This document shows, one piece after another, positions 26,319 to 45,305 of a stretch of DNA of 64,000 nucleotides (position 1 is the stretch's first letter; each line of letters begins with the position of its first letter). The notes under the pieces are model-generated. The model made no database searches and was not told the origin of the DNA. It saw only the letters and a list, made by a program, of their open reading frames with translations. Both the position numbers and the translations under genes were made by a program. This DNA is from an uncultured Pseudomonadales bacterium (lineage in GTDB: Bacteria; Patescibacteriota; Microgenomatia; UBA1400; PJMF01), in contig CAYMSV010000003.1 of the NCBI GenBank assembly GCA_964393205.1, positions 34,608 through 98,607 of the forward strand, in the 5' to 3' direction.

Positions 26319-26348
26319 AAAAAGCACTCTCAATTGAGAGTGCTTAAA
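26319..26348 (-). terminator. Rho-independent terminator for minus-strand gene 26390-26812
   Basis: GCACTCTCAATTGAGAGTGC palindrome flanked by A/T runs. Confidence 0.6.
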
Positions 26349-26389
26349 AAACTTTTATTTTATAACTTAAAGTTAAAATTTAGTTAAAA

Positions 26390-26812: not shown

Positions 26813-26921
26813 ATTCCCCTTCTATAAATGCTATTTATTAACATCATTTTATCTGTATGTCTGTGAAAATGCTAGTTATAAACTGTAGAGTCGACAACAT
26901 CATTTCATTAATCTGATATTA

Positions 26922-27152: not shown

Positions 27153-27193
27153 ATCACCTTTAATCTAAAAATTTACAATCTATAATAACCTTT

Positions 27194-28075: not shown

Positions 28076-28089
28076 ATTACTAAACTGAA

Positions 28090-29187: not shown

Positions 29188-29207
29188 TTATTAATATAGA
29201 CAAAAAT

Positions 29208-30587
29208 ATGATAAAAAATAGTTCAAATTTAAAAAAATTATTGCAAAAATTCAAAGAATCTGGTTTTGAATTAATACAATCTAAAGATAAATCATATTTC
29301 TACATAAAAAATGAAAAAGAAGAAGCAAAAATACTAGAAATTAAAGATAGTGAATATATATTACATCTTTTGAAGATAGAGGAAAACAATTCTATTATTT
29401 ATCAAAAGGGTTTTAAATATTTAATTTCTGAAAAGGATTTTGATTTATTATCGATTTTGTACTTCAAAGAAAAAAAATATCAACTATCAGCTGGATGGCA
29501 ATTCAGAAGAATAAATAATCTTGGAGAGGATATTGAAAAATTAATTATTAAACAAAAATATAAACAAAAAAGAATTAACAAAAAAGGTAAAAGTCTAACA
29601 ATTTCTCCAAATATATACTCACTTATCCTTAAAGATATATGGCGTGCTGAAGATAAATCAAGAAAATATAAATCATCAGTACGAAATTATCTTTTAAATG
29701 ACCTAACTGGAGAATACTCTTCAAAAAAAATTAAAGATACTACTTCATTAAACAAAGGTGAATATGAATTCATAACACATAGATTTAATTTAAAAACAAA
29801 AAATAAACGTAAAGACTATCTTAAATACTTAAACAAAAATGACATCAATTCTCTACAATATTTATTTCTAAAAATGGTTAAAAATAAAGTTTTTGATGAC
29901 AAATATTTAAAGAAACTAAATAACTTTTTCAAAAAAGAAAATCTTAGAGAAATCATAAGTCTAGGAAATGAGATATTAAGTTTAGGTGTTACAGATTTAA
30001 GTACAAAAAAAGCAAAAGCCACAGTAAAAAAAATTACTGAAAAAAAAGTTGCAAAGCTTGAAGGTCTTTGGCAAGAATATTTTGAACAATATTTGTTATT
30101 ATTAATATTTTCTTACAAATCAATTCATCCAAAAATCAAACTAAATAATATTGATTCAGATAAAAACTATCCAGATTTCATTGGAATAAATCATTATAAT
30201 GGCTTAGATGTTATAGAGATAAAAACTCATTTAAAAAAAGCACTAACTTATGATTCGAGTCACGATAATTTTAGTTTTTCCTCTGAATTGAGCAAAGCTA
30301 TTATACAAACAACAAATTACATGGATCAAATAGTTGCAGAAAATTTCAAGAAAAGTTCTGATAAAACAAAAATAACTTCATCAATTCATGAAGAAAATTT
30401 ACATAGACCTAGAGGAATAATCATTATCTCATCTTATGAACATCTAACAACTGACATGTCATCAAGAAATAAGGATAAACTAACTAGAGATTTCACCAAA
30501 CTTAGAAATAGTCTACATAATATACAAATTCTAACCTTTGATGAAATACTTAATACAGCAAGTGACTATCTAGATAATGTTGTATAA
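29208..30587 (+). CDS. Hypothetical protein with C-terminal PD-(D/E)xK nuclease-like motif (Shedu/DUF4263-like candidate)
   Basis: C-terminal NYPDFIGINHYNGLDVIEIKTHLKK...AIIQTTNY resembles D...(D/E)xK...Q restriction-endonuclease fold. Confidence 0.35.
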   Translation: MIKNSSNLKKLLQKFKESGFELIQSKDKSYFYIKNEKEEAKILEIKDSEYILHLLKIEENNSIIYQKGFKYLISEKDFDLLSILYFKEKKYQLSAGWQFRRINNLGEDIEKLIIKQKYKQKRINKKGKSLTISPNIYSLILKDIWRAEDKSRKYKSSVRNYLLNDLTGEYSSKKIKDTTSLNKGEYEFITHRFNLKTKNKRKDYLKYLNKNDINSLQYLFLKMVKNKVFDDKYLKKLNNFFKKENLREIISLGNEILSLGVTDLSTKKAKATVKKITEKKVAKLEGLWQEYFEQYLLLLIFSYKSIHPKIKLNNIDSDKNYPDFIGINHYNGLDVIEIKTHLKKALTYDSSHDNFSFSSELSKAIIQTTNYMDQIVAENFKKSSDKTKITSSIHEENLHRPRGIIIISSYEHLTTDMSSRNKDKLTRDFTKLRNSLHNIQILTFDEILNTASDYLDNVV

Positions 30588-30611
30588 ATAAACTATATAA
30601 AATATATATTT

Positions 30612-30794
30612 ATGATAAAACCAATAAAAGTTGATGCACTGAATATGACAAATCATGCATATTTTGAATGCAAAAATTGCAATCTAAAAAGTGAGATGTT
30701 CTTAAAAAATAAAATTAGTGTTGATGAGAAAAATGATACTCAATATTTAAATACAATGCCATGTCCTAATTGCAATAAAAAGCTTGGCAAATAG
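30612..30794 (+). CDS. Small zinc-ribbon protein (60 aa)
   Basis: CKNCN...CPNCNKK. Confidence 0.3.
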   Translation: MIKPIKVDALNMTNHAYFECKNCNLKSEMFLKNKISVDEKNDTQYLNTMPCPNCNKKLGK

Positions 30795-30811
30795 TCTATA
30801 TTGTTCATGGC

Positions 30812-31681
30812 TTAATTTAAATCTTCTGGTAAGAGGCTATCAATATGCCACTCATCATTAAATAAAGCAGAATTATTTTCATTAATTCTTGAAATATCTC
30901 TATCTCCATAACTATCTTTAGTTTTTTCAAAACGACTAATTCCAAAATTAATTGCTAAAACTTCGGCAGATTTTGCTGTATTTGATAACCCAAGTTTTAT
31001 TAACTCCTCAGAACTAATCCACAAATAATATTCATGAAATTGATTTTTTTCACCAAATTGATTTGTAACCCAGAAACCACCTTGCTTACTCTTAAAACGC
31101 AAGCTAACTCGCCATGCCTTTTGAGAACTAGAGTAAGGACATGAATGTTCTGCCACTATCATGAGTCCTGGAATTAATATTTTTGAATACTTTTCTTCCC
31201 ACCAATCAGGATTTTCTATTAAACAAAATTGTTCATTTACCATTTCAAATGTAAATCTCTCTCCATCGCTAGGATTGCTACTATCAATTGTTTCTTTGAT
31301 TTTTTCTATGGCTAACTTTTCAATTTCTTCCTTTTTTAAATGATGGGAATTTAGTATGGAGATAAAAAAGATAAAACCAATAAAATCATCTTCACTTTTT
31401 TTAACAATAAATCTTGCCATTCTTTCAAAACTAGCACTTAGAGTGACAACTCCTTTCAAATCCCAATAAATTTTATAACCATGATGATTAATAGGAGTAT
31501 CATATTCCCCTAATTTTTTATTTTCCAAAAAATTCAATATTACTTTTAATTCATACCTTCGATCACCTCTGTCATTAACTCTTACAGAATTTAAAGTCCC
31601 ATTTCTATCCCAACGTCTTAAAGTTTCAGGGTGAATATTTAACATTTCTGCTGCTTCACTTATGGTAAGTAAGTTTTTCAT
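30812..31681 (-). CDS. Excisionase/MerR-family HTH protein with C-terminal unknown domain
   Basis: LTISEAAEMLNIHPETLRRWDRNGTLNSVRVNDRGDRRYE (HTH_17 excisionase-type). Confidence 0.55.
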   Translation of the reverse strand: MKNLLTISEAAEMLNIHPETLRRWDRNGTLNSVRVNDRGDRRYELKVILNFLENKKLGEYDTPINHHGYKIYWDLKGVVTLSASFERMARFIVKKSEDDFIGFIFFISILNSHHLKKEEIEKLAIEKIKETIDSSNPSDGERFTFEMVNEQFCLIENPDWWEEKYSKILIPGLMIVAEHSCPYSSSQKAWRVSLRFKSKQGGFWVTNQFGEKNQFHEYYLWISSEELIKLGLSNTAKSAEVLAINFGISRFEKTKDSYGDRDISRINENNSALFNDEWHIDSLLPEDLN

Positions 31682-31790
31682 AACTTATACTAAGTTATAC
31701 TTAATTAAACAAAATGTCAAGAGATAAAAAAGCACAACATTTTTTTAAACTGTCTCATTTGTCTTGTTTCTGTTATAAACATAATTAGAG

Positions 31791-31896
31791 GTCTCTATAG
31801 TTCAATGGATAGAATAGAGTCTTGCTTAAGATCATAAGCTTATCAGTTTGTGTTTTTAACAAGACTAAGATGGTGGTTCAATTCCACCTAGAGATA
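31791..31896 (+). tRNA. tRNA-like gene with aberrant 50-nt anticodon region (pseudo-tRNA or insertion/intron-containing tRNA)
   Basis: Acceptor GTCTCTA/TAGAGAT (G1-U72), D-arm TAGTTCAATGGATAGAAT, T-arm GGTGGTTCAATTCCACC; 7-bp stem AGTCTTG/CAAGACT encloses 35 nt. Confidence 0.4.
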
Positions 31897-31916
31897 CAAA
31901 TGTTATAACGATATAT

Positions 31917-31949
31917 GAGTTCCAGACCCATATGCTCCGCCATTTTAAT
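31917..31949 (+). repeat. Direct repeat R2 (candidate att core)
   Basis: See R1. Confidence 0.6.
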
Positions 31950-32011
31950 GTGTTTTAACAAGCCATGCAGTCATTTGTTCACTTTCCATCAATGCGTGGT
32001 ATCATTTCTTA

Positions 32012-32419
32012 ATGAGCGATAAACAATTATCTTTAATAGCTCCTTGTGGCATGAATTGTTCTTTGTGCTTAGCGTATCAAAGAGAGAAAAATCACTGCAA
32101 TGGCTGTAGAAATGAACAAAACATCAAAACCAAAACTAAGAGATTTGACAATTGCATTATTAAAAATTGTAAACTATTAAAAAACACAAAATCTGGATTT
32201 TGTTATGACTGTGATAAATTCCCATGCACCAGATTAAAACAGTTAGGTAAAAGATATAAAAATAAATATAATATGAGTATGTTAGATAATTTAGACTATA
32301 TAAAAGAAAAAGGAATTAAAGAATTTGTTGAGAAAGAAAATCTTAAATGGCAATGCTCTAAATGCAATGGATTAATGTGTGTACACAGAGAACATTGTTT
32401 AAATTGTAAGAAAAAATAA
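32012..32419 (+). CDS. Cys-rich DUF3795-like protein
   Basis: LIAPCGMNCSLCLAYQ...CNGCR pattern. Confidence 0.45.
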   Translation: MSDKQLSLIAPCGMNCSLCLAYQREKNHCNGCRNEQNIKTKTKRFDNCIIKNCKLLKNTKSGFCYDCDKFPCTRLKQLGKRYKNKYNMSMLDNLDYIKEKGIKEFVEKENLKWQCSKCNGLMCVHREHCLNCKKK

Positions 32420-32421
32420 GT

Positions 32422-32748
32422 ATGACCGTAGACGAATATTATAATAAACAGAAATCTCCTCAAAAAGAAATATGCTTGAAGTTGAGAGAAATAATTAAAA
32501 AGAAATATCCACAATATAAAGAAAGTATGTTGTGGGGAGTTCCGGTTTTTAATAACGGCTTGTTCTATATTGTATCTCTAAAAAATCATGTTAATTTAGG
32601 TTTTACTATTTCTAAGCTTACTAAAGAAGAAGAAAAATTATTTCAAGGAGGGGGTAAAACTACCAGAAAGATTGAAATAGAGAGTTTAGATCAAATAAAT
32701 AAAGCAAAAATATTAGAATTAATAGATTTTGTTATTAAAAAAACTTAA
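32422..32748 (+). CDS. DUF1801 (YdhG-like) family protein
   Basis: 108 aa; KEICLKLREIIKK...YKESMLWGVPVF. Confidence 0.4.
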   Translation: MTVDEYYNKQKSPQKEICLKLREIIKKKYPQYKESMLWGVPVFNNGLFYIVSLKNHVNLGFTISKLTKEEEKLFQGGGKTTRKIEIESLDQINKAKILELIDFVIKKT

Positions 32749-32768
32749 AAGGGAACTGTGGTTCCAGG

Positions 32769-32801
32769 CCCAGATGCTCCGCCATTAAAATATTACTTAA
32801 C
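32769..32801 (+). repeat. Direct repeat R3 (third copy of att-like core)
   Basis: TGGTTCCAGGCCCAGATGCTCCGCCATTAAAAT. Confidence 0.6.
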
Positions 32802-32932
32802 AAAAACACATTTGACAAAAAAATTCTTCCCTGCTAGGATTTCAATGATGAAATTTAATTATAAGCGAATCGGTTTAAATTGGTGGACTACCTCTTTTTG
32901 GCGGTAGTTCTTGTTGTATTTAAGAAGTGAAA

Positions 32933-32957
32933 ACACCGCCACATGGGCGGTTTTTTT
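32933..32957 (+). terminator. Rho-independent terminator
   Basis: CACCGCC-ACAT-GGGCGG followed by TTTTTTT. Confidence 0.7.
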
Positions 32958-33007
32958 ATGCAAAAACCGAAAATGTAAATATATTAATAAACTTTAAAGA
33001 AAGAAAC

Positions 33008-34228
33008 ATGAAAAAAAATAAAATTAGAAAAAAATATTATCAGGCATTACCAAACAAAACAGGTTTTTTTGGTGAGTATGGTGGTCAATTTGTTCCTCCA
33101 CAATTAAAAGTAGCCCTAGAAGAAGTTGCTGCAGCTTATGAAGTGGCAAAGAAAGATCCTGTATTTCAAAAAGAATATAAGACTCTTTTAACAGACTACG
33201 TAGGCAGGCTATCCCCCCTTTTTTATGCTAAAAATTTAACAGAAAAATTGGGTGGCGCAAAAATTTATTTAAAAAGAGAGGACCTCAATCACACGGGTGC
33301 GCATAAAATTAATCACACCTTGGGTGAGGCGCTGTTGGCTAAAAAAATGGCTAAGAAAAAACTACTAGCAGAAACGGGGGCTGGTCAACATGGTGTAGCT
33401 CTTGCTACCGCCGCAGCATTGGTGGGACTTGAATGCGAAATTCATATGGGTGAAATTGATGTTTTAAAACAACATCCTAATGTTTTACGCATGCAACTGC
33501 TTGGTGCCAAGGTGATCACTGTTAAAAGCGGTGGGAGGTGTTTAAAAGACGCTGTTGATAGTGCTTTTGCCGCCTACCTCAAAGATTATAAAAATACTTT
33601 TTTTGGCATTGGCTCAGTTGTTGGTCCACATCCTTATCCAATGATGGTGAGAGACTTTCAATCAATTGTAGGAAAAGAAGTTCGCCAGCAAATCATAAGT
33701 AGCGAAAATAGACTACCAGATTATTTAGTAGCGTGTGTAGGTGGTGGTTCTAATGCCATGGGTTTATTTCACGCTTTTCTCAATGATAATCAAGTCAAAA
33801 TGCTGGGTGTTGAACCAGCAGGAAGGAGTTTTAAACCAGGTGATCATGCTGCTACGCTAACGCTCGGTAGACCAGGGACTTTGCATGGAATGTTTACTTA
33901 TCTGCTGCAGGATGACAAAGGTGAACCCTTAGCTGTGCATTCTATTGCTTCTGGTTTAGATTATCCTGGAGTTGGTCCACAACACTCTTATCTTAAAGAT
34001 CAAGAAAGAGTGAATTATGTCACAATTAATGATCAAGAAGCTCTGGCCGCTTTTGAACTCTTAAGTAAGGTTGAGGGTATTATTCCTGCTTTAGAAAGTG
34101 CTCATGCTATTGCTCATGTGTTGAAGTTGGCTCCAACTCTAAGTAGAGACAAAGTTATTGTTGTTAATCTTTCTGGCCGTGGCGATAAGGATGTTGATTA
34201 TGTTGGGGAATTACTTGGATTGAGCTAA
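33008..34228 (+). CDS. trpB: Tryptophan synthase beta chain (stand-alone)
   Basis: [18 protein letters not shown] (PLP lysine), GGGSNA; start ATG 33008 after the terminator rather than track start 32927. Confidence 0.85.
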
Positions 34229-34236
34229 AATTAGTT

Positions 34237-34277
34237 TGGGCTGCCACGATGTTTTCGTTGCGGCCCAACTTAACACA
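34237..34277. terminator. Imperfect hairpin between convergent genes (bidirectional terminator candidate)
   Basis: GGGCTGCCACG-ATGTTTT-CGTTGCGGCCC. Confidence 0.4.
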
Positions 34278-34283
34278 ATAGCT

Positions 34284-34487
34284 TTAATCAAACCTTTGTT
34301 GACGAAGATCGTTTTCACAAAGTCTAAGCGCTGTATTTAGATCTCTAATGCCAACAATGTTAAAGCCCGCCTTGTTTAGTTGATTGCTTATTTTAGCTAA
34401 TTCTTTATCTCCATTAGCAGTAGCGTATTCATGCTGACCGTTTTTATTTATATAAACTACACATTGATTTGATTGCTCTTTTGTCAT
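34284..34487 (-). CDS. Hypothetical small protein (67 aa)
   Basis: ORF only. Confidence 0.3.
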   Translation of the reverse strand: MTKEQSNQCVVYINKNGQHEYATANGDKELAKISNQLNKAGFNIVGIRDLNTALRLCENDLRQQRFD

Positions 34488-34598
34488 AGTAAGCCGTATT
34501 TTAATACTATTTTCTTATTTTTGTGAAGATTAGCTCATATATTGATATTTTTTTTGCCATGTAAAGAATAATTAATAGCAATTATAATTAATTACAAG

Positions 34599-35498
34599 AT
34601 GAAATTTGGTATTAGTCTCAGTCATCACCAACTAAAAGAACTCAAAATTGATTTAGATTATGCTCTCAATGAAAGCATTAAGCATCAGTTTGCCTATGTC
34701 AGGCTCAGCCTTTATTGGAATGAAATTGAGAAAAATAAAAATATTTATGATTTCTCTATTATAAAGAAAATTTTAGACTTTTACCAAAAAAACCAACAAG
34801 AAATTATTTTAACTGTTGGAGTCAAAGCCCAAAGATGGCCAGAGTATTATTGGCCCGAATACACTGAAAACAAAAATCTTAGTAATCAAAAAACAAAAGA
34901 ATCCCTACTAAAATTTATAGAAACCAGTATTCAAGAATTAAAAGCTTATTCTTGTATTGAGTATTGGCAGTTAGAAAACGAACCCCTAGATCCGAGTGGC
35001 CCACATCAAGACGTTATTCCTTTAAATGTTCTGCAAAAAGAAGCAGCGCTAATCAAAAGACTTGATCAGCGACCGATTATTATTAGTGTCTGGGGAAATG
35101 AAATAATTAAAAGAAATTTGCTAGATCAATTGAGTTCTATCACCGATCATATTGGTTTAGATCTTTATTACAAACTGTTTATTAGAAAAATTTTAAAAAA
35201 ATCAATTTATCTTGGACCACTGCAAAGTAGCAAAGAACTGAAAAAATATCTTGCTAAATTTCCTAAAATCAATTTTTGGATTACTGAACTGCAGGCTGAA
35301 CCATGGGAAAAAGATGCAAAGGCCTATCTCAGTCTTAATCCGAGAAGCATTAGTCCTCAGCAATTATTAAATAATTTTAAAAAAGCCTCGTTATTAGATG
35401 TAGATAAAATTTTGTTTTGGGGGTTTGAGTATTGGCTGTGGAAGAAAATTAAGGGGGATAATAGTTATTTTAAGCTTCTTAAAGAAATAAAAAATTAG
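34599..35498 (+). CDS. Clan GH-A glycoside hydrolase-like (GH5/GH113-type TIM barrel)
   Basis: Acid/base NEP motif (WQLENEPLD) and nucleophile region ITELQAEPW. Confidence 0.45.
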   Translation: MKFGISLSHHQLKELKIDLDYALNESIKHQFAYVRLSLYWNEIEKNKNIYDFSIIKKILDFYQKNQQEIILTVGVKAQRWPEYYWPEYTENKNLSNQKTKESLLKFIETSIQELKAYSCIEYWQLENEPLDPSGPHQDVIPLNVLQKEAALIKRLDQRPIIISVWGNEIIKRNLLDQLSSITDHIGLDLYYKLFIRKILKKSIYLGPLQSSKELKKYLAKFPKINFWITELQAEPWEKDAKAYLSLNPRSISPQQLLNNFKKASLLDVDKILFWGFEYWLWKKIKGDNSYFKLLKEIKN

Positions 35499-35553
35499 TT
35501 GTTTATTTGATCAAGATTGCTTTTTTATTCATCTCAAGCTATAATATCCCATA

Positions 35554-36379: not shown

Positions 36380-36419
36380 ATCCCATAATGTTGACAATAT
36401 AATATTATAAATATATAAT
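36380..36419 (+). promoter_or_regulatory. Sigma70-type promoter with upstream conserved ATCCCATAAT element
   Basis: -35 TTGACA 36391-36396, 17-bp spacer, -10 TATAAT 36414-36419; ATCCCATAAT 36380-36389. Confidence 0.6.
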
Positions 36420-36461: not shown

Positions 36462-37139
36462 ATGAAAAAAATAATTTCTTACCTTTTAATAGCCACTGGC
36501 TTTTTATTGTTTTTCGCAAATCTAGCTAGCGCCAAAGAATGTCGTACTGTTTACGGTGGTGGTGAAGTTTGTGAAACCGGCAGCATTAGTTTAGATAAAA
36601 AGGTTTTTAATCCAAAAGCTGAACAATATTGGGATAATATTGCTGCTAGTTCTTATGCTTTTTCTCCAAAAGAAGAAGTTAAGTTTAGTTTAAGAATCAA
36701 AAATATTTCAGATATTAAAGTTGACAGCGTTCGTTTAGATGACGACTTCGCTCGCTTAATTGATTACATGATTTATGTAAGTAGTGATAAAGGCGATTAT
36801 GAAGTTGAAGTCAAAGATAATGTTATTAAATTTAAGCTTGGTGATTTAGATGGCAAAGAAGAGCTTACAGTTTACTTTACAGCTCGTTTCAAAGACGCAG
36901 ATGAATTACCAGTCGGTACCACTTGTATTACTAATGTAGCTCGCGCTTATTCTGATGAAGATAATTTAAGCGATACCGATTATGCTAGTTTTTGTGTCAA
37001 GACCGATGAGGCTAAAATTGTTACTGAAGTCACTCCAGACACTGGTTTTGATTTAAGCACTATTTTAGCTCTAGAAGCGATGGCTTTAGCTGGTTTAGGT
37101 GCTTTTGCCCTAACTAAGTCAAAGAAAATCAGTAAATAA
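36462..37139 (+). CDS. Sortase substrate: secreted surface protein with C-terminal TPDTG sorting signal
   Basis: Signal peptide; C-terminus VTPDTG + hydrophobic stretch + KSKKISK tail. Confidence 0.55.
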   Translation: MKKIISYLLIATGFLLFFANLASAKECRTVYGGGEVCETGSISLDKKVFNPKAEQYWDNIAASSYAFSPKEEVKFSLRIKNISDIKVDSVRLDDDFARLIDYMIYVSSDKGDYEVEVKDNVIKFKLGDLDGKEELTVYFTARFKDADELPVGTTCITNVARAYSDEDNLSDTDYASFCVKTDEAKIVTEVTPDTGFDLSTILALEAMALAGLGAFALTKSKKISK

Positions 37140-37161
37140 TTAGCATTTTTTAATTGAATTG

Positions 37162-37192
37162 AAAAACCCCTCTTCAAAAAAGAGGGGTTTTT
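37162..37192. terminator. Bidirectional rho-independent terminator
   Basis: AAAAACCCCTCTTCAAAAAAGAGGGGTTTTT. Confidence 0.85.
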
Positions 37193-37260
37193 AATAGGGT
37201 TTTAAAATTTGCATCTGGTTTTTCCTTTTTTATAGAGCACTTATAAAACAAAGAATTAAC

Positions 37261-37300
37261 ATCCCATAATATTGACAAAAATGACTTTAATTGATATACT
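37261..37300 (+). promoter_or_regulatory. Sigma70-type promoter with ATCCCATAAT element; transcript has ~350-nt leader
   Basis: ATCCCATAAT 37261-37270, -35 TTGACA 37272-37277, -10 TATACT 37295-37300. Confidence 0.55.
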
Positions 37301-37655
37301 TCTATCTAGTTATGATAACTTTTTAGTAGAGAGCAGGCCTCGATGTAATAATGCTTGTTTCTTGAAACACATTTCTTCATCAAAGTCTTTTCTCTGCTCG
37401 AAAGAGTAGAAGAAGGAGCTCTTTAAGCAGCTCTTAAAACCCGGAAATTGCTTCTGGAGTTTTGATTAGCTTACTAAAGAGACGCACCTTAACAATTGGA
37501 GGAAAATGCTTTAGGCATTTAGGTCCAGCTTTTGTGACAATCATTGCAATGAATGGTTGTTAGAGAAGCTGGTCCTTCGTGCCGAAAGGCAAAGGGACGA
37601 GTCGGTGACCACTGACGCCCATGTGGAGATTTTAACCTATAAAAAGGAGAATACC

Positions 37656-38174
37656 GTGCGTACAAAAATTTTTTTTGTTGTATTTGTTCTGGCCAGCATC
37701 ATGCTGGCAGCCTGCGGCGCGAAAGATGTGCCTACAGGTGATGAATTAAGCACTGAGCTAACTGAGCCGCGGGTAGTGGTGGTAACAGCCACTCCTGCTC
37801 CAGTCAAATTAGCTGGAATCGATGGGCTCGAAAGTCCTCGTTTGCACCATGCAGGGGAACACCCCGCTGGAGAATCCAGTGTTGGTATGTTTGACATTGG
37901 AGTAAACGAAGGTCAGTATGGCCTGGTGTTTGGTTGGAACCTTGCTTGGGGTGCACAAAGTATCCCCGGTGAAGGCTGTGAACTCGTTGTTCTCGTATCA
38001 GGATGGTATGAGGACTTTGAGATTACAGATGGTCGTTACGAGGTTTATGACCTCCCGGCGGCCGATCCCTCTGGTTGGGCAGAAGTTTTGCTCAGCCAAC
38101 GGATAGAAGAGCAGGCCACCCACTATGGATGTCCCGCTGATAAAGTCCCCCCAGTTTGGGAGGGTGGCAAATAG
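37656..38174 (+). CDS. Lipoprotein, unknown function; GC-rich (foreign-composition) gene
   Basis: GGAG RBS then GTG start; lipobox LAAC; local GC ~50% versus ~33% background. Confidence 0.55.
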   Translation: MRTKIFFVVFVLASIMLAACGAKDVPTGDELSTELTEPRVVVVTATPAPVKLAGIDGLESPRLHHAGEHPAGESSVGMFDIGVNEGQYGLVFGWNLAWGAQSIPGEGCELVVLVSGWYEDFEITDGRYEVYDLPAADPSGWAEVLLSQRIEEQATHYGCPADKVPPVWEGGK

Positions 38175-38194
38175 CCACCCTCGATCCTCCAATT

Positions 38195-38220
38195 CCCGCG
38201 AGTCGTAAAAAGCTCGCGGG
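38195..38220 (+). terminator. GC-rich hairpin after lipoprotein gene (terminator candidate; no U-tract)
   Basis: CCCGCGAG-TCGTAAAAAG-CTCGCGGG. Confidence 0.4.
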
Positions 38221-38281
38221 AAACCTTAAGTTCATAATCGCATATCAGTTTGTGAATTTAAGGTTTCTTGTCTTTTAAAAT

Positions 38282-39148
38282 ATGAAAACTGTCAAAGAAC
38301 AAACACTAGTTTCAATTCTAATGCCTGTTTATAATGCTGAGAAATATCTCAGCAAGACGTTAGAAAGCATTCAATCTCAAACATATAAAAATTGGGAGTT
38401 ATTTGCTATTGATGATTGGTCAACTGATCGATCTTATAGCATTTTATTAGATTTTGCTAAAAAAGATAAAAGAATTAAGCTTTATAGAAATGGTAAGCAT
38501 CGAGGGGTCGCTGGAGCTGCTAATTTGGCTTTATCAATGATTAAAAGTGATTATGTAGCTCGAATGGATGCTGATGACCTAATGCATCCTGAGAGAATTG
38601 CTAAGCAACTTAAATTCTTAAAAGCAAATCCAAGTGTTGTAATTGTTGGTTCACAATGCCTTTTGATCGATCAAGATGGTCAAAAAATTGGTGAAAAAAA
38701 GTTTCCAATGAAGAATGAGGATATCATGAAGATGATTTTTCGCTCAATCCCTATTCAACAACCATCCATGATGATTAATAGAGTTTTGTTGCCAAAAGAT
38801 TTTATTGCTTATGATAAAAGCAAAAACACTGCTGAAGAAGTAGGTCTACTTTTTAAGCTTTTTGAATATGGTGAGGCTGCTAACTTACCCGATTTTTTAC
38901 ACTTTTATCGTTTGCACGATAAAAACACTTCTCTTACAAATCCAAAAAAAACATTTTATTTAACATTTTTAACCCGCTTAAAATATGCCCATCAGGCCAG
39001 TTTTAGTGATTTATTTTTAAATTTTGTACAGTTAGTGATTGTTTTTATTTTGCCTAAAAAACTAATTTTTCCTTTATATAATTTGTGGCGTAATAATAAG
39101 CTGTTAAATTTAAGTGTTCCTTCCCTTACTCGACTTTTCAAAATATAA
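38282..39148 (+). CDS. Family 2 glycosyltransferase
   Basis: SILMPVYNAEKYL...AIDDWSTD, MDADD (DxD). Confidence 0.85.
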   Translation: MKTVKEQTLVSILMPVYNAEKYLSKTLESIQSQTYKNWELFAIDDWSTDRSYSILLDFAKKDKRIKLYRNGKHRGVAGAANLALSMIKSDYVARMDADDLMHPERIAKQLKFLKANPSVVIVGSQCLLIDQDGQKIGEKKFPMKNEDIMKMIFRSIPIQQPSMMINRVLLPKDFIAYDKSKNTAEEVGLLFKLFEYGEAANLPDFLHFYRLHDKNTSLTNPKKTFYLTFLTRLKYAHQASFSDLFLNFVQLVIVFILPKKLIFPLYNLWRNNKLLNLSVPSLTRLFKI

Positions 39149-39158
39149 TTTAATACTG

Positions 39159-42100
39159 ATGATGTTTAAAAAAAAGTTTGTTTTTCCATTTTTATCAGTG
39201 TTTCTTGTTTTTATTCTTTTATTATTTAATTTCAGTTCCGGCACTTTTTTAATTGGTTGGGACAATTTACAAACGGATTTAAATCCAGTTCTTAATTTTA
39301 AGAGAGCTTTAAACGTTTCTTGGCAAGAATATCAGGGGCTTGGATTGCTAGGAGGAATGGGGCATGGGGCAGACTTGATTCGCCAAATGATCCTTATCCC
39401 TTTTTCTCTAGTTTTAAATCAAAACTTACTGCGATATTTTTGGAATTTTTTCGCTCTAGCAATTGGTGTTTTGGGTTTTTATTCTTTACTTACTTACTTG
39501 ACAAAAAATAAACAAGCCTCCTTTTTAGGAGCTTGTTTCTATCTTTTAAATATTGGGACAATGCAAAATTTTTATGTTACATTTGAACCTTTTTCTTCTT
39601 TTTTTGCATTTTTACCATGGTTAATTTATTTTTTATTTAAATATTTAAATAAAGCGAAGAAAAAAACATTATTGATGTTTTTCTTCTTGTCTTTATTAGG
39701 TACAAGCTTTGCTTATGTGCAAACCACATTTTTAGTTTATTTAATTTTATTAGCGATCATTTTGTTATTTTATATTTTCAAAAAGAATATTGTTTCTAAA
39801 AAAGAGAAAGCTCTTAATTCTTTAAAAATTTTAATTATAGTTTTTTTAACAAATGCTTTTTGGCTTTTACCGCTGTCATTGTTTACTTTGAAAAATATTG
39901 ATACAACGATCAAGGCTAAAGGTAATCTGATGACTACGGAGCCTGTATTTTTACGCAACAATAAATTTGGTAACTTTCGTGATCTTATTCAACTAAAAGG
40001 CTATTGGTTCGATTTTACTGATTTTGATCAATGGGGTAATGCAGTTTTTTTACTTGAAGACTGGAAAGTTCATTTTCAAAATCCCCTGATTACTTCTTTT
40101 TCTTTTATTTATTTTGCCCTATTATTACTGGGAATTACTTCTATTTTTACTTTAAAAAAGTTACCTAGTGCAATGAAACGAGCGCGTTACTCGATTCTGG
40201 CTTTGTTTTTATTCTCTTGTTTTATTCTTCTTGGCTCTAACCCACCATTTGGATTTATTTATGACTTTTTACGTGAAAACTTGCCTCTTTTTGGCCAAGT
40301 TTTTCGCTCCTCTTTCACCAAATGGATTGTGCCCTACAGTCTTTTTTATAGCTTGCTCTTAACTTTTGGTTTAGCTTTCCTTTTCAGCATTTTTAAAAAG
40401 AAGATTTGGCAGCGCCTAGTAGCCGGAGCCTTTTTTCTTTCTCTAATTTTCTATTCCCTACCTAGTTTTACTGGTAATTTCTTTTATTCTCGTCTTAGGA
40501 TAGCAGTTCCTGATGCTTATTTTCAGTTATTTGATTATTTTAAAGACGAGGCTCCACAAAGTAGCAGGATTGCTAATTTACCCCAACACTCTTTTTATGG
40601 TTGGCAATGGAATGATTGGGGTTATCGAGGCTCTGGATTTATTTGGTACGGTATTAAACAGCCCATTTTAGATCGAGCTTTTGATGTTTGGAGTGAGGCC
40701 AGTGAGCGTTATTACTGGCAATTACAGGCGGCTTTGGATAAAAAAGATATTGGTGCGCTGGAAAATGTTTTAGCCCAATACGATGTTGATTATTTACTGC
40801 TTGATGGGTCGATTATCAACCGTAACACCAAGAAGCCTTTTAATTATCAAGCGATAAAAGATCTCTTACTTAGTTCGGAACAGATTAAACTAGTCGAAGA
40901 ATTTGATTTTATTAGTTTATATACTTTTAGCGATTCAGAAAAAAGTCGTGAAAAGAATTTTATTAGTTTGTATAAAGATTTACCAATTATAGTTAATGAT
41001 TATCGTTTTACTTGGGAAGATAAAGCTTTCATAAGTTTTCACGACTATTTGAATAAAGAAAATATTGATCAAGCTGAAGTAATATTTCTCTTTTCTTCAT
41101 TGTTTAGCAATCATTTACAAAAAGATTTGGAATTTACTTTGGGTGAAGATGATAACTATTTTTATTTAACTAATTTAAGAGATTCTAGCGCTAATAACTT
41201 TCAACTTAATTTGCCAGATCTATTGGGTACTGAAACTCACCTGCCATTTCGTTTATCCTGGTTGACGGACGAGAATATGGTGAAATTAAACTTTACTTTG
41301 CTAGCTCCAGAAATTGATAGCGCCAAACAAAAAATCAATTTTAACTTAGTAGAAGACTTTGTTTTTAACATTTCACCATGTTCAAGCAGTGAAGTTTGTT
41401 ATATCAATATAAACAACCAGCTAATTAGCCAGATCAATGAAGGTGGTGAGCTTGATTTGCTGTTAAATACCGATTTACCAAACACTATTGCTTTAAGTAC
41501 CGATTCAAAAATTGACTATTTTGACTTTGCTTTTTTTGATTTAGAACTTGAAGGCATAGAAATTACTAAGGAGGTTTTGCCAGAAAACCCTGGCTTTAGA
41601 GTCAAAATCCCAAAAATTTTATTGCAAAGCAACCTTTTAGAAACCGAACTTAATTTGAGTGAGGCCGAGGACTGTCGGCCGCTACAAGAAGGTTTTGTTG
41701 CTAAAGAACAGCGCTCTGAGGGCAATTATTATCGCTCAGTTGACACCAGTGTTTGCGATCACTTTTATTTAGAAAATTTAGATCACTCTGTTGGCTATTT
41801 GTTTAAATTAAAAGCGCAAAATATTAGCAGTTTGCCCTTGGTTTTTGCTGTCCAAGCAGATAGTTTAGGGCGCAGTCCACTGGAGACTTATTTAAGTGAA
41901 GGTGTAAATTACCAAATTTTGCCTCCAACGGAAGAGTTTAATCAGGGCTATACTTTGTATTTTTCTACTGATTCCTATGGTAGAGAAGTTAATGAAAACC
42001 TTTTAGAGTCGGCAGAAGTGTTTTTTTGGCCATATCATTTTTTGAAAAATATTGCTTTGCAAAATATAGACAGGGATTTTTTTAAAAATGAAATGGTTAA

Positions 42101-42434
42101 TTGTGACTTTGAAGTCAAAAAAAGTGCTCTTTGGTTATATCGAGTGAGCTTGAGTAGCAATTGTGATGCTAATTATTTAAAGCTATCTCAAGCTTATGAT
42201 AGTGGCTGGTTAGCATATCAAGCTGGGCAAAGACTTGAGCATCGAAAACTTAATAATTGGGCTAATGCTTGGATTTTAAATAATCAAGACAGCGATTCTC
42301 TAATTTATATTTTTTATTGGCCACAATTTTTACAATATTTTGGCTTCTTAGCAATTGCGCTTGGTTTCATTGGAATATTTTATTGTGACAGAAAGAAGCC
42401 TATTACTGATTTAGACAAAAAAACTAATCAGTAA
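39159..42434 (+). CDS. Large polytopic membrane protein, YfhO-like (GT-C fold candidate) with large extracytoplasmic C-terminal domain
   Basis: >12 predicted TM helices in first ~480 aa, ~600-aa soluble C-terminal domain ending in TM; start ATG 39159. Confidence 0.45.
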   Translation: MMFKKKFVFPFLSVFLVFILLLFNFSSGTFLIGWDNLQTDLNPVLNFKRALNVSWQEYQGLGLLGGMGHGADLIRQMILIPFSLVLNQNLLRYFWNFFALAIGVLGFYSLLTYLTKNKQASFLGACFYLLNIGTMQNFYVTFEPFSSFFAFLPWLIYFLFKYLNKAKKKTLLMFFFLSLLGTSFAYVQTTFLVYLILLAIILLFYIFKKNIVSKKEKALNSLKILIIVFLTNAFWLLPLSLFTLKNIDTTIKAKGNLMTTEPVFLRNNKFGNFRDLIQLKGYWFDFTDFDQWGNAVFLLEDWKVHFQNPLITSFSFIYFALLLLGITSIFTLKKLPSAMKRARYSILALFLFSCFILLGSNPPFGFIYDFLRENLPLFGQVFRSSFTKWIVPYSLFYSLLLTFGLAFLFSIFKKKIWQRLVAGAFFLSLIFYSLPSFTGNFFYSRLRIAVPDAYFQLFDYFKDEAPQSSRIANLPQHSFYGWQWNDWGYRGSGFIWYGIKQPILDRAFDVWSEASERYYWQLQAALDKKDIGALENVLAQYDVDYLLLDGSIINRNTKKPFNYQAIKDLLLSSEQIKLVEEFDFISLYTFSDSEKSREKNFISLYKDLPIIVNDYRFTWEDKAFISFHDYLNKENIDQAEVIFLFSSLFSNHLQKDLEFTLGEDDNYFYLTNLRDSSANNFQLNLPDLLGTETHLPFRLSWLTDENMVKLNFTLLAPEIDSAKQKINFNLVEDFVFNISPCSSSEVCYININNQLISQINEGGELDLLLNTDLPNTIALSTDSKIDYFDFAFFDLELEGIEITKEVLPENPGFRVKIPKILLQSNLLETELNLSEAEDCRPLQEGFVAKEQRSEGNYYRSVDTSVCDHFYLENLDHSVGYLFKLKAQNISSLPLVFAVQADSLGRSPLETYLSEGVNYQILPPTEEFNQGYTLYFSTDSYGREVNENLLESAEVFFWPYHFLKNIALQNIDRDFFKNEMVNCDFEVKKSALWLYRVSLSSNCDANYLKLSQAYDSGWLAYQAGQRLEHRKLNNWANAWILNNQDSDSLIYIFYWPQFLQYFGFLAIALGFIGIFYCDRKKPITDLDKKTNQ

Positions 42435-42451
42435 TTTGCTATACTAGAGAA

Positions 42452-44593
42452 GTGCTAAAAAATCACATCCTGCTTAAGGTTAAAACCAGCAAAGACAGCC
42501 AAGAGACTGAGGAGTCAGCTGTTCAACTTTTTTCTACCCTGCCTAAGTTAAAAAATAAGCTGACTGATAAGCTGCTGGGTAAAAACGAAAGACTTAGTTT
42601 TGAAATCTTGGTTAGAGAACAAAATATTCATTTTTTAGTTTGTGTCCCCCTGCGCCTTTTAGAATATTTTAAAGGAGCTATTCATGCTAGTTATCCAGAA
42701 GCAGTAATTGAAGAACTTGCTTATGATCCAGCAATTTGGTTTTTTGCTAAAAACTACCAAGTGTCTGTGGCTAGTCTTAAATTAAAAAATAAGAGTTATT
42801 TGCCCCTTAAAACTTACAAAGATTTTAAGGACATTGATCCATTATCAACTTTAATGTCTACTCTATCTAAAAACGAAGGTCAAGATACTATTTTGATCCA
42901 AATGCTTTTAAACAATCAAGTTAGTGTTTGGTCAAAAAGCTATCAGGCTTCTATTGAAGAGTTAGAAAATCATCCACAAAAGAAGTTGATTGGTCAAAAA
43001 ATGGAACAACGATCGCTCAAAGTTGCTTTTAAAATAGCGGTTGCCACAGATAATCGGCAAAAAAGCAAGCTAATTTTAGATAACATCGCTGCGGCCTATC
43101 AAGCCATGTCTCAGAGTGAGAGCAATGCTTTGCTTTTAAAGAAAAGACATTTTTTTAAAAAATCTTTTCTCAAAAAAATGCAAGAGCGAAGTTTCAGCGC
43201 TTCGCCGAATTTAAACTTAAGTTTAGATGAATTGGCCACTCTTTATCATTTTCCCAGTCAAAAATTAAGTAATATTACTAATATATCTTGGGGTAAAAAA
43301 TTACTTGGTGAGGCTCCAGAAAACTTGCCGACTATCACCCGCGACAGTTCAGTTCAAAGAAAAAAGGATATTAATATTATTGGTGAAACAGTTTATAAAA
43401 ATCGTCTAACTAAGTATGGTTTATGGAGTGAAGATCGCCGCCGCCATGTTTATGTAATTGGTAAGACTGGCACCGGTAAATCTACTTTATTGGCTAATAT
43501 GGCAATTAATGACCTCAAGCACAATGAAGGAATGTGTGTAATTGATCCTCATGGTGATCTGGTAGAAACTTTACTCGATTTTATTCCTAAGCATCGAATT
43601 AACGACGTGGTTTATTTTGATCCAGCAGATACTGAAAGAACGGTGCAAATCAATCTTTTTGAAGGAGAAAATGTGGTGCATCGTGAGCTAATTGCCTCTG
43701 GCATTATTTCTGTTTTTAAAAAGCTCTATGGCTATTCTTGGGGGCCAAGGTTGGAATATATTTTGCGTAATTGCTTACTAACCTTGCTTAAAAGTCCAGA
43801 AGCAAAATTGTCAGATATTTTAGACTTATTAACCAATGAAAAATTTCGCGAAAAAGTAGTTAACAAACTTGATGATCCAATTTTGAAAAACTTTTGGGTC
43901 AATGAATATAACAAAATGCATGATCGTCAACGCCAAGAACAAATTGCTTCAATCCTCAATAAAGTTGGTCAATTTGTTTCTTCACCACTGGTGCGCAATG
44001 TGGTTAATACCACTCAGTCTTCTTTCAGCATCGAAGAACTAATGAGTCAGGGCAAAATTTTATTAATAAATTTATCTCAAGGTCGCTTAGGTGAAGATAA
44101 TGCTACCCTTTTGGGTGCGATGATGATTACCAAGATTCAGTTAGCAGCTATGGGTAGAGTTAATGTTAGTGAAGATAAGCGACCCGACTTTTATCTCTAC
44201 GTTGACGAGTTTCAAAATTTTGCCACCGATGCTTTTATTAAGATTCTTTCCGAAGCTCGTAAATATCATCTTAATTTAACTTTAGCCAATCAATATATAG
44301 ATCAAATTCCCGAAGAGGTGCGCAATGCTATTTTTGGCAACTGTGGCAACATCATTAGTTTTGTAATGGGAGCTGGTGATGCTAGTTATTTTCAGGCTGA
44401 ATATGGAGGACTTTATACTCAAGACGATTTAGTTAATTTAGATAAATATCAAATTATTAATAAAATTTCTATCAATAATGTTTTGAGTAGGCCGTTTCCT
44501 GCTTATACTTTGCCTCTAGCTAAGAGTAGCAACCGAAATCGAGAAAAAGTAATTCGCAACAGTCGGGAGCGATACGCTAAAAAGAGAAATTAG
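42452..44593 (+). CDS. HerA/DUF87-family P-loop ATPase with ~330-aa N-terminal domain of unknown function
   Basis: Walker A VIGKTGTGKST, hallmark IDPHGD after Walker A, Walker B LYVDEFQNF. Confidence 0.55.
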   Translation: MLKNHILLKVKTSKDSQETEESAVQLFSTLPKLKNKLTDKLLGKNERLSFEILVREQNIHFLVCVPLRLLEYFKGAIHASYPEAVIEELAYDPAIWFFAKNYQVSVASLKLKNKSYLPLKTYKDFKDIDPLSTLMSTLSKNEGQDTILIQMLLNNQVSVWSKSYQASIEELENHPQKKLIGQKMEQRSLKVAFKIAVATDNRQKSKLILDNIAAAYQAMSQSESNALLLKKRHFFKKSFLKKMQERSFSASPNLNLSLDELATLYHFPSQKLSNITNISWGKKLLGEAPENLPTITRDSSVQRKKDINIIGETVYKNRLTKYGLWSEDRRRHVYVIGKTGTGKSTLLANMAINDLKHNEGMCVIDPHGDLVETLLDFIPKHRINDVVYFDPADTERTVQINLFEGENVVHRELIASGIISVFKKLYGYSWGPRLEYILRNCLLTLLKSPEAKLSDILDLLTNEKFREKVVNKLDDPILKNFWVNEYNKMHDRQRQEQIASILNKVGQFVSSPLVRNVVNTTQSSFSIEELMSQGKILLINLSQGRLGEDNATLLGAMMITKIQLAAMGRVNVSEDKRPDFYLYVDEFQNFATDAFIKILSEARKYHLNLTLANQYIDQIPEEVRNAIFGNCGNIISFVMGAGDASYFQAEYGGLYTQDDLVNLDKYQIINKISINNVLSRPFPAYTLPLAKSSNRNREKVIRNSRERYAKKRN

Positions 44594-45240
44594 TGAAGAA
44601 AAATTTTTCAACAGTCACTGATGAAAACAAGAAACCTTGGTGGGTATATATTGCTGAATGTAGTGACGGCACTTACTATACTGGCATCAGCAACGATATT
44701 AATAAAAGATTAGATAAACACAATACAGGTTGTGGAGCTCAATATACAAAAAATCGCAATCCTGTTAGTCTTGTATATTTTGAAAAACATTTAAATCGAT
44801 CCTTAGCAACAAAAAGAGAATATCAGATTAAACAATTAACTCGTCAAGAAAAAGAGAAATTAGTTGATGGTTTCTTATCAAATGCGGCCGGCTTAAAGGA
44901 AAATTTTTTATCAATTAATAAAATGCCAGCCGATAGCTTTGGTTTGAAAATTATCATCAAAAATCAAGAAAATCAGGAGCTAGCTCGTGCTTTTTTATAT
45001 ATTATGCAAAATGACTTGCATGAGCGACCATTTGCTTTATTGGAAGATGTTTTTGTAGAGTCAGAAAATCGCGGACAGGGCTTGGGTACGCAATTAATTA
45101 AAAAAGCTATTAGTGAAGCCAAGAATTTGAATTGTTATAAATTAATAGCCACCAGTCGTTATCAGCGAGCTAGAGTTCATAAGCTTTATCTTGACTTGGG
45201 TTTTAAAGATTGGGGTCAAGAATTTCGTTTAGACTTTTAA
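44593..45240 (+). CDS. GIY-YIG nuclease (YhbQ/UPF0213-type) fused to GNAT N-acetyltransferase
   Basis: WWVYIAECSDGTYYTGISNDINKRLDKHNTGCGAQYT...REYQIKQL (YhbQ-like); C-terminal GNAT motif A ENRGQGLGTQLIKKAI; GTG start overlaps ATPase stop (TAGTG). Confidence 0.6.
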   Translation: MKKNFSTVTDENKKPWWVYIAECSDGTYYTGISNDINKRLDKHNTGCGAQYTKNRNPVSLVYFEKHLNRSLATKREYQIKQLTRQEKEKLVDGFLSNAAGLKENFLSINKMPADSFGLKIIIKNQENQELARAFLYIMQNDLHERPFALLEDVFVESENRGQGLGTQLIKKAISEAKNLNCYKLIATSRYQRARVHKLYLDLGFKDWGQEFRLDF

Positions 45241-45305
45241 ACTATTCTAATTTTTATTTTTAACTTACAATTGTAAGTTGTAGTAATAGTCTTGTTTAAA
45301 TCTAA

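Follow-up and report, generated by a model that had tools for sequence, protein, structure and literature searches.

A predicted structured leader RNA and a putative 5'-3' helix around an interchangeable, GC-rich surface lipoprotein gene in candidate phyla radiation bacteria

Why does an AT-rich bacterial genome carry one GC-rich lipoprotein gene behind a leader of some 350 nucleotides, and was the unit imported? The question is posed by a 64,000-nt stretch of contig CAYMSV010000003.1 (assembly GCA_964393205.1, positions 34,608 to 98,607), here called the window. Its GC content is 33.1% overall and 51.6% at 37560-38230, with 51.5-51.6% in the open reading frame (ORF). When GC is averaged over 600 nt (mean 0.331, standard deviation 0.042), the 12 highest values all fall within this island, the strongest GC peak of the window. 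A preliminary description had placed there a 172-aa lipoprotein gene with a GTG start and a promoter about 350 nt upstream, had taken the leader for a possible structured RNA, perhaps a cobalamin-type riboswitch, and had regarded the whole unit as horizontally acquired from a higher-GC donor. The gene, the promoter and the GC peak are confirmed and the leader behaves comparatively as a structured RNA, whereas the riboswitch class and the import of the whole unit had to be given up. The explanation preferred here, with a probability of about 0.58, is that in Pacebacteria/Woesebacteria-type bacteria of the candidate phyla radiation (CPR) the locus is a fixed site from which a hypervariable surface (lipo)protein is expressed, and where a structured leader and a helix between the 5' and 3' ends would close the mRNA. 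Its direct support consists of conservation, covariation, complementarity, mosaic identity and composition.

The locus recurs in other genomes. Close homologues of the window lipoprotein form 12 clusters among 5.8 billion proteins, and every cluster that can be placed lies in the same gene order: a sortase gene, a gene for a DUF11/CLIPPER surface protein, an interval of some 500 nt, the lipoprotein gene, a family-2 glycosyltransferase (GT2) gene and a gene for a membrane protein of about 1100 aa. Five additional homologue contexts (loci L012, L013, L036, L037 and L038) all have the GT2 gene and the large membrane protein downstream. A DNA pattern drawn from the leader matches 9 GTDB genomes and 13 metagenome contigs; the informatively labelled genomes are Candidatus Pacebacteria, Paceibacterota and Woesebacteria, and most of the others are entered as 'uncultured Pseudomonadales'. 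The third-party annotation (TPA) bins L014, L016, L018, L020 and L022 contain the CPR locus under the label 'uncultured Pseudomonadales bacterium', which looks like a taxonomic mislabel. The locus is therefore a lineage-specific, syntenic feature of Microgenomates-type CPR bacteria and not an insertion peculiar to this genome.

The leader extends over about 349 nt (approximately 37307-37655) and has a predicted folding energy of -123.4 kcal/mol, with z = -6.4 relative to shuffled sequences. RNAalifold folding of 20 leaders yields 68 pairs, 37 of which show compensatory changes. Long invariant nucleotide blocks are present in the leaders of loci whose lipoproteins share only 52-56% identity, and the leader core is more conserved (80-87% identity) than the flanking protein genes (72-79%). 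Two covariance models were built and their structures checked by hand, one for the 3' domain with helices P7, P8, P9 and P10 (model R2, alignment A8) and one for the 5' domain with P2 and the arm P4-P5-P6 (model R3, alignment A10). In the 3' domain 94.5% of the alignment cells are paired and 13 of the 37 pairs change on both sides; covariation is 0.239 against 0.126 in shuffles (0/500 as high), and slid controls reach at most 0.083. Two-sided changes occur in 22 of the 31 pairs of the 5' domain, where covariation is 0.507 against 0.222 when shuffled (again 0/500 as high). On this comparative evidence the leader is a real structured RNA of about nine helices backed by covariation, two of them capped by GNRA loops (Table 1). 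Two segments that the preliminary description had picked out by eye find their place in it: GCCGAAAGGC corresponds to P9, and GGTGACCACTGACGCC holds the 5' strand of P10.

This RNA family is absent from Rfam 15. The Rfam 15 covariance models, run on 37100-38300 at E<=10, gave no riboswitch family, and the leader matched only chance microRNA models at 15-18 bits; a scan of the whole window at gathering thresholds returned tRNAs only. The cobalamin idea was removed because even at E<=10 no match appeared. The preliminary description had also named a leader with neither an Rfam match nor conservation as the outcome that would count against it; the match is indeed lacking, but the leader is strongly conserved. 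One copy of the RNA lies in the window, and in all members its last helix ends 1-25 nt before the Shine-Dalgarno (SD) sequence. L036, from a genome with 46-47% GC and with different upstream genes, keeps the leader architecture with an almost wholly different sequence, scores weakly against the model (28.8 bits) and has a hairpin of other sequence at the position of P8. The covariance models do not recognise L012, L013, L037 or L038. The invariant single-stranded block can nevertheless be recognised as CACCUUAAUAA in L036, CACAUUAAC in L012 and CUCUUUAAC in L037.

Some candidate elements were left out of the structure. A helix P3 (AAGG/CCUU) proposed by RNAalifold is not kept in L017 and L027. 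A long-range CUCG/CGAG pairing and a basal extension of P1 (37327-37333/37391-37396) compete with P2, which has better compensatory support, and they are regarded only as possible conformers. The scan also flagged 37441-37469, the P6 hairpin with a U run, as terminator-like; in this feature, which divergent leaders do not keep, the 3' strand of P5 supplies the U run.

The second conserved property is a match between the leader and the 3' untranslated region (UTR). Immediately after the invariant block, the window leader contains ten nucleotides that are perfectly complementary to a site just past the stop codon (dG -14.8; 1 of 300 shuffles as good in a test restricted to these sites). Within this 5' arm GGAGG (37498-37502), 154 nt upstream of the GTG at 37656, is invariant in 20 leaders and matches the CCUCC of an assumed standard 16S rRNA 3' end. 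On the other side a CCUCC motif follows the stop codon by 1-15 nt in 15/15 main-clade loci, regardless of gene type, and is itself followed by two hairpins. In the main clade the 5' arm reads AAGGAGG or UUGGAGG, a perfect SD-like sequence, and the 3' arm UCCUCC. The complementarity amounts to 8-16 bp in 16 loci, and five sequence versions keep it: AAUUGGAGGA; AAGGAGGA followed by A, U or G; AAGGCAUACAUACUGC in L036; AACGAGGCAUA in L012; and AACAGGUGAGAAAU in L037. Around the GGAGG:CCUCC core the flanks change together, being AAUU/AAUU in the window clade, AAAAA/UUUUU in type B loci (defined below), U/A in L007 and G/C in L015 and L017. The flank covariation score is 0.132 against 0.045, with 0/500 shuffles as high, while the count of covarying pairs is not significant (72/500).

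Three divergent lineages also keep the pairing. The arms of L036, L012 and L037 have unrelated sequences, yet they always lie beside a block resembling CAC(C/A)UUAA(C/U), and their partners start 1-4 nt past the stop codon. The L036 match, with dG -22.1 (0/300 shuffles as good), extends over 16 bp and includes a bulge and two G-U pairs; dG is -17.4 in L012 (1/1000 shuffles) and -18.3 in L037 (0/1000 shuffles). Bulges occur in the helices of L016 and L037, and like the G-U pairs of L036 these are irregularities that an RNA helix tolerates. In folds of whole transcripts (1-1.5 kb) the helix belongs to the minimum-energy structure in 9/11 loci and has a pair probability above 0.9 in 9/11; in the 978-nt window transcript it is part of the minimum-energy fold with a pair probability of 0.91. 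Five sequence versions and covarying flanks suggest that the pairing is maintained by compensatory change, and most likely the arms form a 5'-3' UTR helix of the kind described for the hbs and icaR mRNAs. A duplex search with the whole leader against 30 nt of 3' UTR did not discriminate, as the GC-rich terminator stem dominated it. It was also considered that the invariant CACCUU might sequester the real SD; this was dropped, with no consistent partner in partition-function folds of 15 homologues.

In most members an AUG stands at SD spacing after the internal GGAGG and opens an upstream ORF of 2-23 codons. The window version (37506-37514) has 2 codons, equivalents occur in L001, L006, L018 and L028, and that of L001, with 23 codons, spans P7-P8 exactly; the AUG is missing in L007, L015, L017, L027 and L036. 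A conserved leader peptide was rejected, given this variation in length and its absence from divergent members.

The same leader precedes three unrelated types of GC-rich gene. Type A, to which the window gene belongs, encodes lipoproteins of 172-200 aa; type B encodes lipoproteins of about 305-345 aa with tandem-repeat linkers; and type C encodes membrane-anchored proteins of about 320-350 aa. Over 8 kb L001 (type A) shares 99.3% identity with L031/L035 (type B), through the leader and the signal peptide, and this identity ends just past the lipobox cysteine, beyond which no similarity is left. Comparison of L004 (type A with a GT2 gene) with L031/L035 (type B with a GT1/GT4-like gene) delimits the replaced module as the mature part of the lipoprotein together with the next glycosyltransferase gene, and between L004 and L031 similarity returns at the start of the large membrane protein gene. 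The window gene is itself composite. Relative to its nearest relative, L011, the flanks are 92-98% identical and 37615-38094 only 30-58%; the ribosome-binding site and signal peptide are 97-98% identical to those of L028, whose flanks reach only about 78%; and the domain is closest to that of L007 (78-87%), whose leader hardly aligns. By these patterns of identity the window gene is a mosaic, and lateral exchange appears to be limited to the coding part (ribosome-binding site plus signal peptide, or mature domain, sometimes with the next glycosyltransferase gene) and to take place by recombination among related lineages.

How the variants are stored or generated was also considered. Searches with types A, B and C for silent copies (tblastn against the 64-kb window) returned only the gene itself. 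A diversity-generating retroelement was rejected: a template-like repeat of the gene was not found, and none of the scanned ORFs encodes a reverse transcriptase. No donor lineage outside this kind of locus appeared among the contexts examined, the library used for the domain search described below being without taxonomy. Within type B the linkers vary in copy number: L031 (oriented 6049-6993) has 3 copies and L035 (8298-9278) 4 copies of the 12-aa repeat EQEPPTINVNVP between near-identical flanks, and other type B genes have EEPVV-type repeats.

The product of the window ORF begins with MRTKIFFVVFVLASIMLAAC, in which a signal peptide MRTK-IFFVVFVLASIM-LAAC ends in the lipobox LAAC with Cys20. 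A positive n-region, a hydrophobic core and the lipobox pattern [LVI][ASTVI][GAS]C are all present, as expected of a bacterial lipoprotein signal. The same layout is shared by the proteins P0002-P0008 and P0010 and by type B genes, and the NCBIfam model for the boundary between lipoprotein signal and mature protein gives a sub-threshold match to the window protein. Cys20 is followed by a Pro/Thr/Val-rich linker and a conserved domain of about 115 aa with two conserved cysteines. The AlphaFold model shows beta strands and a C-terminal helix, with block means of the confidence score pLDDT (predicted local distance difference test) mostly above 90 at about residues 81-170. Pfam and NCBIfam hold no family for the protein, and no fold match was found in the PDB. 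A profile search with the domain recovered 98 clusters in a library of 1.84 billion proteins, and many of its distant members are Ala/Pro/Gly/Arg-rich. The product would accordingly be a lipid-anchored protein with a Pro/Thr-rich linker and a beta-rich domain. A longer ORF of 205 aa from TTG 37557 was rejected as the gene because it overlies conserved RNA helices; the homologues start at the aligned ATG.

The promoter agrees with the consensus at 11 of 12 positions (TTGACA-17-TATACT with a TG extension), is the sole plus-strand promoter-like site within 36900-38500, and is kept in all related loci, the distant L017 and L027 included. Transcription would start near 37307. The two hairpins that the preliminary description saw as brackets of the unit are both real, but the upstream one, at 37169-37187 with a T run after it, serves the preceding DUF11 gene as intrinsic terminator, and the downstream one has no T tract. 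A layout of two hairpins after the gene is common to types A, B and C. The scan found no terminator between leader and ORF and no second promoter before the ORF, and leader, ORF and 3' arm presumably lie on one transcript. The upstream element ATCCCATAAnnTTGACA occurs at 36380-36396 and 37261-37277, that is, before the DUF11 surface-protein gene and before the leader; these 2 matches compare with 0.21 expected, and the element is kept in distant relatives. This sharing suggests a common regulator or an extended promoter for surface genes.

Table 1. Positions of the promoter, leader elements, putative pairing arms and genes in the window.
Feature	Position	Strand	Remarks
Promoter	37261-37300	+	Upstream element ATCCCATAAYA; -35 TTGACA 37272-37277; 17-nt spacer; extended -10 TGATATACT 37292-37300
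P1, 5' hairpin with variable tip	37335-37388	+	RNAalifold columns 21-31/76-86; many two-sided changes, e.g. CG:9 UA:4 AU:4 GC:3
P2, hairpin with GNRA tetraloop	37393-37410	+	Loop GAAA 37400-37403, GAAA or GCAA in divergent members; 6/8 pairs change on both sides
P4-P5-P6, long irregular arm	37419-37481	+	Model R3
P4a	37419-37424/37476-37481	+	
P5	37434-37439/37460-37465	+	
P6	37441-37446/37452-37457	+	Conserved loop AUUGC
Invariant single-stranded block GCACCUUAACAA	37484-37495	+	Identical in all 20 aligned leaders
5' arm AAUUGGAGGA, putative pairing	37494-37503	+	Just 3' of invariant GCACCUUAACA; holds SD-like GGAGG, then AUG CUU UAG
P7, short hairpin AAAUGC/GCAUUU	37504-37520	+	Weak in L017 and L027; 89% paired cells (model R2 helices 1-2)
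P8, long hairpin	37521-37576	+	Lower half CCAGCUUUU/AAGCUGG sequence-invariant; 21 pairs, 5 of them changing on both sides; 98.5% of cells paired
P9, hairpin UGCC-GAAA-GGCA	37580-37591	+	GNRA-capped; model R2 helix 4; CCC-GUAA-GGG in L036
P10, last hairpin before the ribosome-binding site	37609-37626	+	4/6 pairs change on both sides; CCAC/GUGG becomes CCCC/GGGG or CCGC/GCGG in divergent members
SD sequence AAGGAG	37644-37649	+	Kept before every gene that follows the leader
Lipoprotein gene	GTG 37656 to TAG 38174	+	172 aa; homologues begin at an aligned ATG
3' arm UCCUCCAAUU, anti-SD-like, putative pairing	38185-38194	+	Begins 11 nt past the stop codon
First 3' hairpin	38194-38221	+	10 bp, GC-rich, no T tract
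Second 3' hairpin	~38222-38267	+	16 bp, AT-rich, U-rich tail
GT2 glycosyltransferase gene	38282-39148	+	Pfam PF00535; 31% GC
Multi-pass membrane protein gene	39114-42434		1106 aa; no Pfam family
VirD4/TraG/HerA-like ATPase gene	42452-44593		
Fused GIY-YIG nuclease and GNAT acetyltransferase gene	44593-45240		
PMT_2 family protein-mannosyltransferase-like gene	45306-46958		
NAD-dependent epimerase/dehydratase gene	48687-49649		

Under the preferred explanation, a near-consensus promoter with its conserved upstream element would produce an mRNA with a structured 5' leader of about 349 nt. The linker after the invariant block would pair with the start of the 3' UTR and form a panhandle around whichever ORF happens to be installed, and leader and helix together would set the stability and translation of the mRNA in cis, independently of the ORF. 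A ribosome that terminates 1-15 nt before the 3' arm would have to melt the helix, which would couple the state of the leader to translation. At the level of DNA, the leader and signal peptide upstream, and the conserved C-terminus with the 3' UTR or the downstream genes on the other side, could act as homology arms, between which recombination would swap alleles and whole gene types across lineages. That the arms pair in vivo, with an effect on mRNA stability or translation, we infer. A more specific proposal can be advanced only tentatively: the locus may be an ORF-independent cassette that combines an RNA with a core of about 240 nt at 37393-37626, serving as a sensor or ribonucleoprotein platform for a ligand, a protein or the ribosome, with an mRNA-circularising helix. 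Terminating ribosomes would then open the helix and couple termination to re-initiation or decay.

Several points weigh against the preferred explanation. The covariation figures are generous, since the alignments had been fitted to the models and relatedness among the sequences inflates the shuffle tests; compensatory changes are nevertheless plain in the raw leader alignment. The predicted folding of a perfect, GC-rich helix of 10 bp depends in turn on the complementarity. Only the 6-bp core of the match is kept in L001 and L004; their type A cassette has a 3' UTR of the other leader type, itself a sign of cassette transfer. For L007 the helix has a predicted probability of 0.03, and no pairing was found in L013 or L038. 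No conserved expression platform is seen either: sequestration of the real SD is inconsistent, with predicted partners that vary among 15 homologues. Finally, the two arms also constitute a DNA inverted repeat that flanks the ORF and is a potential recombination site.

The alternatives concern the origin of the GC peak and the nature of the leader and arms. That the peak is a by-product of amino-acid composition alone, an outcome that the preliminary description had named as counting against it, is scarcely tenable. The lipoprotein has much Gly, Val, Pro, Ala and Glu but little Lys, Asn and Ile, and with window codon usage its composition does raise the expected GC from 33% to 45.1%; the observed value is 51.7%, however, and GC at synonymous third codon positions (GC3) reaches 0.40 where 0.23 would be expected. 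Amino-acid composition thus accounts for about two thirds of the excess and synonymous sites for one third. It is very improbable that promoter, leader and gene were recently acquired together from a higher-GC donor. Composition is atypical at all three codon positions, the Ala/Pro/Gly/Arg-rich distant domain members are what higher-GC organisms would be expected to have, and alleles have clearly been exchanged between lineages. A recent foreign insertion is nevertheless disfavoured because promoter and leader occupy the same syntenic site in every relative, with identity that follows the flanks, and because the GC excess is family-wide: leader-linked genes have a GC of 0.46-0.57 in 18/18 loci, genomes of 40-49% GC included, against 0.33-0.49 in the flanks, and a GC3 of 0.41-0.61 where neighbouring genes have about 0.25. 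Further, the ORFs scanned at 27-52 kb include no integrase or transposase, no tRNA junction or direct repeats bracket the unit, and the glycosyltransferase genes swapped along with the mature part are not GC-rich (0.31 and 0.36). The homologue contexts examined, among them L036, L037 and L038 as the 3 of 98 domain-family clusters with contexts, all have the GT2 gene and the large membrane protein, and no outside donor is visible. On the simplest reading the alleles form a shared, recombining pool whose high GC is a lasting trait, uncoupled from the host genomes. For the synonymous part, flow from GC-richer relatives, selection on the mRNA and GC-biased gene conversion, reportedly treated by Lassalle and colleagues in 2015, are all candidates.

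As for the leader, an independent non-coding RNA gene that merely happens to lie upstream would explain its elaborate structure, as found in stand-alone RNAs, and a conservation above that of neighbouring genes. It would leave unexplained why no terminator or second promoter precedes the ORF and why the last helix stands so close to the SD, and it is highly improbable because the match between the linker and the region after the stop codon makes sense only if leader and gene are functionally linked. A riboswitch, or another switch of the surface gene that senses a ligand or protein, is a less remote alternative but still unlikely. Large size, several covarying helices, two GNRA loops and invariant single-stranded blocks give the leader an aptamer-like structure; a gene on the same strand always follows it directly, and two mutually exclusive pairings are possible around P1 and P2. 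Set against this are the lack of any Rfam riboswitch match, cobalamin included, the lack of a conserved terminator or SD-sequestering helix, a length of about 240-340 nt that exceeds most aptamers, and the occurrence at a single locus per window before a surface protein, not before the genes of one metabolic pathway. Since the test for SD sequestration failed and no classical expression platform was found, a constitutive or translation-coupled stability device ranks above a ligand riboswitch, and the invariant blocks may still have a binding partner. The main rival to the 5'-3' helix, and one we consider decidedly doubtful, takes the arms for DNA inverted repeats that serve inversion (an inverton, with phase variation) or cassette exchange. 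Inverted repeats of 8-16 bp do flank a segment of 0.7-1.2 kb, both arms change together, a hypervariable surface protein is a typical target of phase variation, and the pattern used in the collection scan spans the left arm and is blind to the inverted state. Yet no recombinase was found in the ORFs scanned at about 27-52 kb or among the called genes of related loci, the ORF has the same orientation in 11/11 contigs retrieved via the protein, and the breakpoints of the cassettes lie away from the arms. The core of the match is moreover an SD/anti-SD pair in unpaired segments of the UTRs, with the G-U pairs and bulges noted above.

The region 38282-46958 appears as a surface-glycosylation neighbourhood; the lipoprotein is probably glycosylated by the neighbouring transferases, and the Pro/Thr-rich linkers of the various lipoproteins may be their substrates. 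Further upstream the relatives differ. In L004 and L031 the argininosuccinate synthase region is joined to the sortase gene by about 3 kb of pyrimidine-synthesis genes, where the window has instead some 16 kb (about 19300-35500) that start from a tRNA-Ser (19346-19429). This stretch contains a ParB-like methylase gene (24888-26210), a Shedu SduA defence gene (29208-30587, 23% GC), a MerR regulator gene and an odd tRNA, and may be a defence island at a tRNA. The odd tRNA (31791-31896, plus strand) matches Rfam with 46.6 bits and is missed by ARAGORN; its anticodon loop has an insertion of 38 nt that is intron-like and unusual for a bacterium.

Several known systems resemble parts of this locus. 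Genes for S-layer proteins, such as slpA of Lactobacillus, combine a strong promoter with a long structured 5' UTR that stabilises the mRNA of an abundant surface protein. To our knowledge these leaders are shorter and simpler than the present one, and no 3' UTR partner has been described for them. The cobalamin riboswitch (RF00174) is likewise a conserved, covarying structured RNA in a 5' leader; the present RNA differs from it and from riboswitches generally by the lack of a covariance-model match and of a recognisable platform, by its single locus and by a size larger than typical aptamers. The closest parallel to the proposed helix is the hbs mRNA of Bacillus subtilis, which has a structured 5' UTR and a 14-bp helix linking the 5' and 3' UTRs and modulating cleavage by RNase Y (Braun, Durand and Condon 2017, PMC5737220). 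High expression is presumed for both genes, and an RNase Y gene is encoded at 732-2303 of the related CPR locus L037, which is relevant to hbs-like decay. There is no homology of sequence or structure between the two systems, however; the leader here is about 350 nt long, and its helix is kept with covariation across deep divergence and around interchangeable ORFs. In Staphylococcus aureus the SD region of the icaR mRNA base-pairs with an anti-SD sequence, UCCCCUG, in its 3' UTR (Ruiz de los Mozos et al. 2013, PMC3868564). The partner here is instead an SD-like site about 150 nt before the start codon and not the functional SD, which would match over only 4-7 bp, and L036, L012 and L037 pair without any SD-like sequence in the arm.

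A perfect SD-like sequence far upstream in a 5' UTR, judged against the assumed 16S end CCUCC, also recalls the STAB-SD of Bacillus thuringiensis cry3A, a strongly expressed gene, where the 30S subunit docks at an SD-like site well before the start codon (Agaisse and Lereclus 1996; reviewed in PMC4113751). The site described here differs in having an AUG at SD spacing in most members, with an upstream ORF of 2-23 codons, so that it may initiate translation; it would also be masked by the 3' UTR, and it is missing from the pairing arm in three divergent lineages. The genetic side of the locus has a counterpart in the Vpma/Vsp proteins of Mycoplasma, in which a conserved 5' UTR and lipobox signal peptide are joined to unrelated mature regions (Chopra-Dewasthaly et al. 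2008, PMC2268961). That arrangement, and the change in tandem-repeat copies seen between the type B genes of L031 and L035, are common to both. Mycoplasmas, however, hold several copies per locus and invert them within the cell by Xer1-type recombination, whereas each locus here has one copy, with no silent copies in 64 kb and no recombinase in the scanned ORFs, and the variation lies between strains and species. Nothing relevant on a leader RNA of CPR bacteria, or on hypervariable lipoproteins in them, came up in limited literature searches. What appears new is that a swappable ORF follows a leader RNA whose family Rfam lacks and is enclosed by a conserved match between the two UTRs, which would form a helix in the mRNA.

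Large structured bacterial RNAs beyond the universal ones are rare, and this one comes from a lineage with almost no experimental RNA biology. A 5'-3' pairing kept by compensatory change around unrelated ORFs would be among the clearest comparative evidence that bacteria are under selection for it. For genome annotation, the locus suggests that GC islands of AT-rich genomes are not necessarily recent imports and can belong to a recombining allele pool as a standing feature. If the ORF-independent cassette exists, any surface-protein ORF placed between the arms would inherit the same control, in cells with very few ribosomes. Beside sortase substrates and glycosyltransferases, the locus probably encodes a major surface glycolipoprotein that varies between strains, and this protein is a candidate for host attachment, or for phage and host-range variation, in these episymbionts.

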